NCBI GenBank assembly: GCA_050230475.1
Contig: JBFLGF010000038.1
Coordinates: forward strand, 1-64,000
Direction: 5' to 3'
DNA from: Ancylonema sp.
Taxonomy: Eukaryota
DNA length: 64,000 nt
Part shown: positions 17,578 through 26,209 of the stretch, piece by piece
Position numbering within the stretch: the stretch's first letter is position 1
Layout of the letters: each line of letters begins with the position of its first letter
Program-made: the position numbers and the translations under genes
Notes under the pieces: generated by a model
Database searches by the model: none
Seen by the model: the letters and a program-made list of their open reading frames with translations, nothing else
Told to the model about the DNA's origin: nothing

Positions 17578-19367
17578 ATGATGGCGGACGCGGCGGCTTC
17601 GTTCAACTCCTCGATGACGGCGCAAATGACTTCCCTCACCGCCCAACTGGCACAAACACGTGCGGATTTGGCCGTGAACACCCTCGTTACAAGCTACATC
17701 TGGAGGCTGACATGCGGCGCCCTCGTACTCTTCATGCAGGTCCGGCTCTTCTCACCTAGACCAACCCCAAAATCCCAGCTTGTATATTCTCGCAGTTGTG
17801 CAAGCGAACCGACTACCTCCCCCACTCCAATTGGTGTCTTAACCGTACGGATTCCGGGAAATTTACGGAGATGACGTATTGCCTGCGGATAACCGTGCGG
17901 AATAACCGTACGGACTTGATCCCTCTCACACGTCTGGTCCCAGATTCTAAGCTTGCAGCTGCTGAGTTATGCCACACACACACGAAACGAGTAGCAGTCT
18001 CATGCTGACGCATCCGTCCGTCCATCCGTCCGTACGTGTGCGTCCGTACAGTTGGGGTTCTCCCTCCTCGAGGCCGGCAGCGTCCGTTTCAAGAACACGC
18101 GCAGCATCATGGTGAAGAACGTGCTGGACACGTGCGTGTGCGCCCTCGCGTTCTGGCTGTTCGGGTACGCGCTCGCGTTCGGAGACGGGTCCAAAATCAT
18201 TGGGTGGGCGAGGCCCTTGGAACCTTCCGCGGTGAGTTTGTGGGGCCCATCTGTCAGGGGACACGTGGCAGTGCCAGGTGGCGGTCCAGTCACATAATTG
18301 ATGCAGTGGTCTCTTTACTCGTGTGCCTTGCTGTTACCGGTCAGATGGTCAAGGGGTAAGACTTGTTCGATTTTCTTACTTCCTGAAATACCGCTCGTAG
18401 TGGTTCGGATGTAGTGTGCGACGTCCTTTCAAATACTTGTTTTATTGTAACCTCTTATACCCCTCCCCATCCTCCCACCCTTCCAACCTCCCACCCTCCC
18501 AGCCAAAAGAGGTTCCAAACCCCAACTGCCGCCCCCTACCCGCCCCTTCCCCCTCCACATATACCTCCACCACATTGAATATAACATAACATAATACAGG
18601 ATGATATGAGATAGTGTAAGATCATGTAAGATAGTATAAGATAATATAAGATAATATACAGTAATATAAGATTATATAGGATGACTGAAGATAATATAAA
18701 ATTATATAAGATAATGTAGGATAATATAAGATAGTATAAGATAATGTATGATAATGTCAGAAAATATAAGAAAATATAAGATAATGTAAGACAATGTAAG
18801 TCATTGTAAGATAAGATAAGATAAGATAAGGTAAGATAAGATGAGATAAGATAAGATAAGATGAGATAAGATAATATGCCTTGCGCAAAATAGAAGGCAT
18901 ATCCATTCCAAAATAGAAGACAAATCCATTCATCACTTACTCACCTCCTTTCCTCCTTCCACTCCCCTCTCTCCCATTTCCCCCTTCCAGCCCCCATCCT
19001 CTTCTGCCTCTGATTATCTTTTTGCCGGATCCATGCCCATGAGTCAAGGCATTCAGTGGTTCTTCCAGTTCACTTTTGCCGCCACCTCCACCACAATTAT
19101 TGCCGGGGCAGTGGCAGAAAGAACGCACCTGTGGGCCTACCTGCTCTACAAGTGAGAAACCGCCCGCCCCCGCCCCTGCCCCCGCCCCCGCCCCCGCCCC
19201 CCCCCTGCCCAGCCTGTTGTTAGTTGTAAACATAAGTAGGTCAGGCCAGTTTAGTAGGTAAGTACCTACACGCAGCAGTAGGAACAAAAACAAAGGTTTG
19301 CAAACCCCAGAATATCCGAGGAGAAAAAATAGTAGAAATAGGAAACCTGAAATGACCCCACCTTACC

Positions 19368-19419
<52 letters not shown>

Positions 19420-25400: not shown

Positions 25401-26209
25401 CACCGCCCTCCAACGCGCCGCGAAGAAGCATGAGTTGGGGTACGCGGATATCCTGAGATTGGAGTCGGGGGATCGACGTCGTGTCCATGACGACATGACC
25501 GCGGTGGTCTTCTTTTTCGACCATGCTTCGAGGAAGAGCGCGAGGGAGGATAAGGCGTGGATACGAGTGAGAGCCGCGCCTTTTTATTTTGTATCTATTG
25601 TGTGTTTGTTTATTTGGTGATTGGATTTGTGGTTTGGGAATGTTGTCTCGCTTGTATGTCTCGTGGCGTGTCAGTGTTGTTGTTTTTTTCTTTCTTTCTC
25701 TTTTGTTTTTCTTTTCTTTTCTTTTCTTTTGTGTGTTTTGCGGTTTTGTTTGCGTTTACGTGTGCGGCTGATCGGGGAAAAGGTACAAGCAACGCAATGA
25801 ATCTCCCTGTCGGCCTTTTTTTACTCGTAACACAAACCATGCATGTTTGAAAGACACCTGTCACGTGCTTTCACCGTGCACGTGGCCCTCCACCCATATG
25901 CCAAAACTGTGAAGCTCTTAATTGGGTTCCGTTTGCAAACCCGTCTTGCGCAAGAGCAACCGTACATGACTCGAGTATCTTCCTATTTTCTTCAATCCTA
26001 TTTTCGTATTTTGTTCTCACTTGCAGACCACCTCAAAATCTGGAGGGGCAACCGCGAGGAAGATCCGGGAAACTCTCAATTTCCGAAAACCCAAAACGTA
26101 TCAAGGAGACGGAACCCTCAAAAACCGTGGCGGGTTCGGAACCTTGCACGGAATGGAACAGTTGCAACCTGGAAGGCCGTACCAGGAAGAAGAAGAAGAG
26201 GAGGGTTAA
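17578..26209 (+). CDS. AMT1: Ammonium transporter (AMT1-type) - clade D PP2C phosphatase fusion protein (~925 aa, 14 exons: 17578-17739, 18052-18231, 18991-19151, 19497-19642, 20105-20202, 20513-21028, 21551-21658, 22069-22389, 22889-22991, 23332-23543, 24100-24261, 24742-24978, 25378-25566, 26027-26209)
   Basis: AMT motifs: FMQLGFSLLEAGSVRFKN, WFFQFTFAAT..GAVAERT, DNAGSMVVHVTGG, GPRIGRF, GFNGGS, GIDDVVQATPTHLFCG, EEEVGLDIAFHG. Exon 8 runs without a stop from the AMT C-terminal motif into FGNFSLATYEANFIMED. PP2C-D motifs follow: GVHDGHGG, TVGSC, ANLGDCRAVIG, LSSDHN, YRVKGKLSITRSFGDLY, VASDGIW, RRRVHDDMTAVVFF. The last exon is the least certain. Confidence 0.85.
18600..18877. repeat. Intronic (ATAAG)n-type microsatellite/minisatellite
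   Basis: Degenerate ATAATATAAG / ATAAG units in intron 2 of the AMT-PP2C gene. Confidence 0.8.
22330..25566 (+). other. PP2C clade D (PPM) phosphatase domain portion of the AMT-PP2C fusion gene
   Basis: Aligns by eye with plant PP2C.D proteins (GEFSMAVVQAN..LED, DGHGG, AVGSCC, AQLSxEHN, WRVKG, FRLxEP..PILSAEP, ASDGLW, ARRLVKAALQEAAKKRE, RRHFHDDITVIVVFLD). All metal-binding acidic residues appear present. Confidence 0.9.
24269..24394. repeat. Intronic (GGCAGAAA)n octamer repeat
   Basis: About 15 copies directly after the donor of exon 11 of the AMT-PP2C gene. Confidence 0.85.

Follow-up and report, generated by a model that had tools for sequence, protein, structure and literature searches.

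The stretch of DNA analysed here (the window) comprises 64,000 nucleotides of Ancylonema sp. (GenBank assembly GCA_050230475.1, contig JBFLGF010000038.1, positions 1 to 64,000 of the forward strand), and it carries at 17578-26209 (+) a gene in which an ammonium transporter (Amt) domain and a PP2C phosphatase domain are encoded in one chain. Joining of 14 exons, whose borders were placed by script, gave a single open frame with one stop, encoding a protein of 925 amino acids (aa) with the order Amt–linker–PP2C (Table 1). An earlier note on this DNA had claimed an in-frame fusion of about 925 aa with a D-type phosphatase (PP2C.D) and matching splice phases, and the fusion, with a phosphatase probably of type D, was borne out: the introns, 310-759 nt long, are GT..AG in 13 of 13 cases with agreeing phases, the junction exon is free of stops and the PP2C catalytic motifs are intact. 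The splicing pattern is inferred from the genomic sequence. Encoding an Amt domain at the N-terminus and a PP2C domain at the C-terminus in a single frame, the gene almost certainly belongs to the AMPC family as a new orthologue of a known fusion, named by Zeng et al. (2024, PNAS, PMC11665922).

The two domains meet within exon 8, which contains no stop in the frame of the gene and three and two stops in the other two frames; thus, the run of 16 G residues (G16) inside this exon is in frame as assembled. This run (22237-22252) and an internal ATG at 22300 were both found where the earlier note had placed them, and the linker, for which it had given about 78 aa, is 79 residues long when counted between the HG motif and the first PP2C strand. 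In-phase splice donors follow both 22380 and 22389 in exon 8; the second was chosen, which gives 925 aa and a spacing that fits the relatives. Inspection by eye led us to reject an overlooked intron in exon 8, as well as frameshifts that compensate each other, as the C-rich acceptor tract seen at most other acceptors of the gene is missing, and the frame aligns to the relatives both before and after the G run. The Met encoded by the internal ATG (M535) is shared by the Marchantia and one Klebsormidium AMPC, the remaining AMPCs having Val or another residue at this column; a short PP2C isoform starting here is neither shown nor excluded. The profile check proposed in the earlier note matched both domains when exons 1-13 were scanned singly with Pfam: Ammonium_transp hit exons 2-7, following the order of the profile (E 4e-31 to 0.06), and PP2C hit exon 10 (E 8e-5) and exon 12 (E 1e-15), while neither profile matched exons 1, 8, 9, 11 and 13. 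Many of the gene's introns open on a run of G and close on a run of C, and tandem arrays of a 7-mer (23863-23935), an AT-rich 10-mer (18581-18877) and an 8-mer (24269-24394) occur in its introns, the 7-mer resembling the plant telomere repeat.

The junction exon by itself, used as query, gave no match at E ≤ 1 among 938 candidates, because the linker is too divergent. Exon 6 retrieved 1826 longer proteins at E ≤ 1e-10, and six of the best eight matches, from Closterium, Mesotaenium and a Logan contig, carried both PF00909 and PF00481. A full-length search with one fused relative yielded 74 hits among 7996 scored candidates, both Pfam domains being present in 17 of the 74, and added fused proteins of Marchantia, Klebsormidium (two) and Chara. 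The architecture that the earlier note had suggested looking for in streptophyte algae was accordingly found in Klebsormidium, Chara, Mesotaenium and Closterium, plus Marchantia. In BLASTP, the window protein aligned to each of the 11 full-length fused relatives tested in a single alignment of 858-948 columns with 44-56% identity (E=0), and such end-to-end alignments argue that the fusion is not due to chance. Two fused proteins of relatives lie on short contigs (904 aa on 2811 nt and 911 aa on 3684 nt), which are likely spliced transcripts, since they are too short for the intron load of this gene. Single-domain annotations were also found among the relatives (P0001 and P0132 of one Closterium strain, Chara GBG91364.1 and a PP2C-only open reading frame of Netrium), which could reflect split gene models or incomplete transcripts. 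Mis-predicted models of relatives lose or gain sequence at the exon borders of the window gene: precisely exon 7 is missing from a Mesotaenium model, and the breaks in Closterium models fall on the 7/8, 10/11 and 12/13 borders, suggesting that the intron positions are shared. As a separate observation, the Chara protein GBG91364.1 (P0220) has an AMPC-type Amt domain without phosphatase, and GBG91369.1 of the PP2C.D list of Zeng et al. is five accession numbers off; annotation may have split a second Chara AMPC into these two. Several long eukaryotic proteins of 1000-2800 aa that contain two Amt-like stretches also ranked high in a representative search (P0136, P0202-P0206 and others; P0202 is from Artemidia motanka).

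The earlier note knew of no described plant or algal AMT-PP2C.D fusion, a view that Zeng et al. (PMC11665922) had already overtaken by reporting many charophyte and bryophyte PP2C.Ds with an N-terminal AMT domain. The window protein shares with these AMPCs, for example Marchantia BBN10952.1, the architecture and domain order, the clade and the diagnostic residues, and no relative exceeds 67% identity to it in the Amt or 58% in the PP2C domain. Four proteins listed under PP2C.D in their Dataset S2, namely GAQ77789.1, GAQ84673.1, GBG59851.1 and ME000184S02161, are the relatives P0128, P0130, P0129 and P0005, and the window protein nests with these four in both domain trees. In its available text, the paper devotes one paragraph to AMPC, tests only a non-fused isoform and reports no pore analysis. 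No other published account of AMPC was found in a literature search, which covers few subscription papers, and McDonald and Ward (2016, PMC4814505) contains neither 'phosphatase' nor 'fusion'. What may be new beyond Zeng et al. is the separate Amt lineage, the pore residue changes and the tree tests described below, and the figures of PMC11665922 may bear on the tree claims.

Separate phylogenies of each domain, another check proposed in the earlier note, placed the window protein among AMPCs in both cases, where it joined sequences of Mesotaenium, Closterium and Netrium (99/97 in both trees), a position that suggests a zygnematophycean alga as the likely host. The Amt tree relied on was a careful tree of 37 rows (a version with 53 rows was made as a quick tree only); tree rows were a hand-picked subset of the fetched sequences, and constraints were set after the free trees had been seen. 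In the Amt tree, 11 AMPC-type rows formed one group (100/100) with a stem of 0.92, and the window protein was one of six rows in a subgroup (99/97) shared with Mesotaenium and Closterium. The only plant AMT1-type row, P0312, taken as such because the spacing of seven residues equals the AtAMT1;1 numbering of PMC13745463, paired with a Volvox AMT (100/98), and forcing it together with AMPC was rejected (approximately unbiased test, AU, p 0.0034). The window protein thus lay outside the land-plant AMT1 clade as represented by this one row, to which its Amt domain is 37% identical without being its sister. The designation 'AMT1-type' in the earlier note therefore stands in the wide sense, AMPC lying in the same wide AMT clade as AtAMT1;1 (PMC13745463); in the narrow sense it does not, land-plant AMT1 grouping with the Volvox AMT rather than with AMPC, which also lacks the Thr460 site. 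Judged by these trees, the AMPC Amt domain is a lineage of its own apart from land-plant AMT1.

The PP2C tree (25 rows, unrooted, without a clade C or outgroup row) split 14 AMPC-type rows from 11 stand-alone rows, comprising flowering plants and one Closterium, at 100/100. The stand-alone rows, presumably of type D by their motifs, are the nearest non-AMPC phosphatases, with 34-41% identity and the same catalytic motifs. Forcing the Marchantia AMPC together with the 10 flowering-plant PP2C rows was rejected (AU p 2.5e-5). The fusion is kept across Klebsormidium, Chara, Zygnematophyceae and Marchantia, and a stand-alone D-type PP2C occurs beside AMPC in Closterium and, according to Zeng et al. 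(PMC11665922), also in Chara. These authors left undecided whether the loss in vascular plants was of the AMT domain or of the lineage; our trees suggest that the flowering-plant stand-alone PP2C.D is likely a sister lineage and not a trimmed AMPC, and that the AMPC lineage was likely lost in vascular plants.

The residues of the Amt domain were compared between the window protein plus 10 less-redundant AMPCs and 292 other Amt domains, using AmtB numbering from the alignment, Sd-Amt1 numbering from PMC11152129 and AtAMT1;1 data from PMC13745463. The window protein has the features of the Amt/Mep/Rh family: the 11-helix fold (taken from relative P0121), the twin His, the Phe gate, the Trp/Ser vestibule and Asp160. 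The AmtB positions W148, D160, both His and F215 are kept in 10/10 AMPCs, and F107 and S219 in 9/10. The equivalents of the Sd-Amt1 set Q22, F25, E29, K44, N45, D48, T104, Y119 and N269 are likewise retained in 10/10, with F57, E61, K76, N77 and D80 of the window protein corresponding to F25, E29, K44, N45 and D48, and T81 to T51 of Ks-Amt5. Three pore substitutions distinguish the family: W212F (window F263) was found in 10/10 AMPCs vs 21/292 other Amts, F161N (N207) in 9/10 vs 0/158, and T273 (C331), which is Thr in 261/292 other Amts, is replaced by C, S or G in 10/10. Across 10 sequences, 16 of 22 pore and pocket positions are invariant compared with 98 of 404 other Amt positions (24%; Fisher p 5e-6); this shows that pore and pocket are under constraint, and does not point to a particular function. 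The W212F and T273C pair also occurs in nematode (Aphelenchoides) and Oikopleura Amts, accounting for seven of the eight non-AMPC W212F carriers among 158 (P0144, P0145, P0149, P0150, P0165, P0172 and P0181), and is possibly a recurrent, compensated pore variant.

Acidic residues of the PP2C domain have catalytic roles, and the metal-binding motifs ED, DGH, GD, DG and DD of the PP2C/PPM family are all present in the window protein (E560, D561, D578, D662, D781, D840 and D841); in relative P0133 the motifs from DGH onward align to ABI1, ABI2 and PDP1. The domain is predicted to be an active metal-dependent phosphatase. Relative P0121, modelled with AlphaFold2 from a 96-row alignment (predicted local distance difference test, pLDDT, 87; predicted template modelling score, pTM, 0.71), shows two domains of high confidence, besides a long helix at the N-terminus (residues 6-60) and a disordered linker; such a pTM gives a mere hint on the docking of PP2C to the Amt domain. 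Its best fold matches were Ks-Amt5 and Sd-Amt1, followed by Af-Amt1 and AmtB; among the matches listed, the two bacterial receptors are the solved structures closest by sequence as well as by fold. No usable match to P0121 came from the ESM Atlas. A short basic patch (window 22150-22200) recurs in most of the otherwise variable AMPC linkers and coincides with the sole linker helix predicted in P0121 (484-491); it is possible that it acts as a membrane-binding or docking element.

AMPC resembles several known systems in part. The bacterial receptors Sd-Amt1 (Amt-HAMP-diguanylate cyclase, PDB 8qj3/8qj4) and Ks-Amt5 (Amt-histidine kinase, 6eu6) likewise carry a cytosolic signalling enzyme C-terminal to Amt (PMC11152129). 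They differ from AMPC in lying on a separate branch of the Amt tree, in the Ser107 ligand, which is Ala in the window protein, and in W212 and the Phe of DFAG, both changed in AMPC; Sd-Amt1 has a HAMP domain where AMPC has a flexible linker, and the output of AMPC is a Ser/Thr phosphatase. From AtAMT1;1 (PMC13745463) AMPC keeps the twin His, the Phe gate, the Trp/Ser vestibule, the D364 equivalent and the C-terminal GxDxxxH motif; unlike AMT1, it has Glu/Lys in place of Cys/Thr, no Thr460 and a fused phosphatase, and the Cys ahead of the first transmembrane helix (TM1), which forms the N-terminal disulfide of AMT1, is missing in 10/10 AMPC sequences. Bacterial Amt-SpoIIE proteins also combine an Amt domain and a PP2C-fold phosphatase in one chain, and arose independently according to Zeng et al. 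(PMC11665922).

From this sequence comparison and the analogy with the bacterial receptors, we tentatively favour, with confidence just short of even, that AMPC is an ammonium-gated phosphatase at the membrane. The Amt fold has 11 helices, forms a trimer and has a cytosolic C-terminus, and in Sd-Amt1 a Glu/Lys/Tyr trio makes the ON/OFF switch (PMC11152129); the switch and side-pocket opening residues F57, E61, K76 and Y164 are present in the window protein and 10/10 AMPCs, while AtAMT1;1 has Cys at the Glu-switch position and shows no ligand-dependent switching (PMC13745463). An AMPC trimer would sit at the plasma membrane, where ammonium would pass the vestibule and the His pair and be held in a partial N1/N2 pocket. 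Bound ammonium would shift the Glu61/Lys76/Tyr164 switch together with the trimer's cytosolic face, GLDxxxH tail included, and the shifted tail may alter the activity or reach of the three tethered phosphatases, with ammonium transport slowed or secondary. The likeliest substrate would be the plasma-membrane H+-ATPase, by analogy to the stand-alone Chara PP2C.D, which binds a Chara H+-ATPase (PMC11665922), and proton pumping would then be tied to ammonium supply. The coupling of ammonium to dephosphorylation of the H+-ATPase or other AMTs, put forward in the earlier note, stays plausible in this light.

Several observations weigh against ammonium gating. The switch residues are ancestral, E, K and Y being present in 244, 272 and 241 of the 292 other Amts, and about 30% of all Amts, plant transporters included, fall in the same cluster (PMC11152129). 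The strict signature of the receptors (AmR; Q-x6-E-x15-N-x2-D-[F/T]-x54-60-T-x2-[S/T]; Pfluger et al., 2024, PMC11152129) was matched by 0/10 AMPCs vs 31/292 other Amts, and A152 replaces Ser107 of Sd-Amt1, the ligand of site N1, with Ala also in 7/10 AMPCs; the failed signature would lower the case that AMPC is an AmR, not that it works like one. W212F need not block transport, since W255A, the equivalent position, lowers AtAMT1;1 transport only modestly (PMC13745463). The linker is 61-102 residues long in 13 sequences with 0/69 positions invariant, is predicted to be disordered in the P0121 model and contains no HAMP-like coupler that could be seen, a looseness that would argue against tight coupling. 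The ranking of structures may reflect clade only, as no plant AMT1 structure was among the matches listed. Finally, the H+-ATPase interaction was shown only for the non-fused isoform (PMC11665922), and functional data on any AMPC were not found in the literature search.

The alternative that survives best, which we consider somewhat unlikely, is that AMPC is a working ammonium transporter carrying a constitutive phosphatase, co-located at uptake sites with the H+-ATPase and other transporters as neighbours and without ligand gating. Retention of the twin His, the Phe gate, W184, D206, S270 and D366 fits such a transporter, as do the long and variable linker, the failure of the receptor signature and the modest effect of losing W255 in AtAMT1;1 (PMC13745463); it would leave unexplained the three family-fixed pore substitutions and the long stem branch, and stand-alone D-type PP2Cs already exist beside AMPC in Closterium and Chara (PMC11665922). 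Zeng et al. (PMC11665922) suggested that AMPC autoregulates AMT activity, that is, the phosphatase would dephosphorylate the Amt tail of the same protein at an inhibitory site and keep the channel open, in line with the closure of plant AMT1 by C-terminal phosphorylation (PMC13745463). This is improbable: the Thr460 site, mapped via P0312, is A463 in the window protein and Ala or Val in 10/10 AMPCs and in 23/23 redundant rows, and self-dephosphorylation at the canonical position is not possible. Outside AMPC, the site is Ala in 41, Val in 21, Ser in 109 and Thr in 24 of the 292 Amts, and its state in AMPC indicates only that the plant switch is missing. T543, just ahead of the PP2C domain and invariant in 10/10 sequences, could serve as another site, but no other Ser/Thr in the tail adjoining the Amt motif is well conserved in 10 AMPCs. 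That the Amt domain is a mere membrane anchor and trimerising scaffold, neither binding nor moving ammonium, would agree with the pore substitutions and the lost N1 ligand, and it is made quite unlikely by the excess of invariant pore and pocket positions and by both His and D206 being kept in 10/10 AMPCs. A false join of two adjacent Amt and PP2C.D genes, or a junction affected by a homopolymer or assembly error, can be dismissed as highly improbable, for the genomic origin of the gene model, the internal ATG and the few single-domain relatives are outweighed by a junction inside one stop-free exon, by the 17 two-domain hits and probably mRNA-derived fused contigs, and by the published family (PMC11665922).

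Around the gene, no sign of a nitrogen gene cluster was detected among 132 stretches of the window scanned with Pfam (Table 1). A Ty1/copia long terminal repeat retrotransposon lies at 37339-42692 (-), with fragments of gag, zinc knuckle, integrase and RVT_2 spread over several frames and direct repeats at about 37339-37785 and 42217-42692 that are 94% alike. At 62472-63998 (-), a stop-free stretch of 509 residues, rich in Gly and Glu and ending in an acidic tail, gave no Pfam match.

Table 1 Exons of the AMPC gene and other features of the 64,000-nt window
Feature	Position	Strand	Evidence
Exon 1: start codon; amphipathic helix at the N-terminus (heptad-like pattern, predicted to be extracellular); start of TM1	17578-17739	+	script
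Exon 2: Amt TM1-TM2; F57, E61, K76, N77, D80, T81	18052-18231	+	PF00909 E 1.5e-13
Exon 3: Amt; F139/F143 (AmtB F103/F107), T149, A152 (codon 19102-19104), Y164	18991-19151	+	Pfam, residue alignment
Exon 4: Amt; W184, D206, N207 (AmtB F161N, codon 19612-19614), H214 = first pore His	19497-19642	+	Pfam, residue alignment
Exon 5: Amt TM5 and cytosolic loop	20105-20202	+	Pfam weak, E 0.05; alignment to relatives
Exon 6: Amt TM6-TM10; F263 (AmtB W212F, codon 20552-20554), F266, S270, N321, C331 (AmtB T273C), D366/D367, H375 = second pore His	20513-21028	+	Pfam E 4e-31
Exon 7: Amt TM11, start of cytosolic tail	21551-21658	+	Pfam weak, E 0.06
Exon 8 (junction): Amt C-terminal motif with A463 (codon 22084-22086), linker (acidic patch followed by a basic one; Gly run), conserved T543, E560/D561 in the first PP2C strand	22069-22389	+	
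G16 run within exon 8, encodes Gly stretch	22237-22252	+	in frame as assembled
Internal ATG (M535)	22300-22302	+	sequence
Exon 9: PP2C DGHGG motif (D578)	22889-22991	+	alignment to relatives
Exon 10: PP2C GD motif (D662)	23332-23543	+	PF00481 E 8e-5
Exon 11: PP2C DH motif and flap region	24100-24261	+	alignment to relatives
Exon 12: PP2C D730, SDG motif (D781)	24742-24978	+	Pfam E 1.4e-15
Exon 13: PP2C HDD motif (D840/D841)	25378-25566	+	alignment to relatives
Exon 14: C-terminal tail, little conserved (1/75 tail positions invariant); stop codon	26027-26209	+	alignment
WD40 repeats	2409-6280	-	Pfam
Ferredoxin-dependent bilin reductase	9448-9858	+	Pfam
2OG-Fe(II) oxygenase	13721-14203	-	Pfam
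LRR/F-box type	31728-32871	-	Pfam
Tim17/22 family	59508-59975	+	Pfam

Ammonium sensing in plants is an open question. AMPC joins a candidate ammonium sensor and a candidate H+-ATPase phosphatase in a single chain. In a wider and more speculative form, which we regard as possible and hold less firmly than gating itself, AMPC would be a eukaryotic one-component ammonium receptor, the pore of which was remodelled (W212F, F161N, T273C) after fusion to a D-type phosphatase, so that external ammonium would set the H+-ATPase in streptophyte algae and liverworts, and vascular plants would have lost this lineage rather than trimmed it to PP2C.D. The Marchantia orthologue makes the AMPC idea genetically testable.

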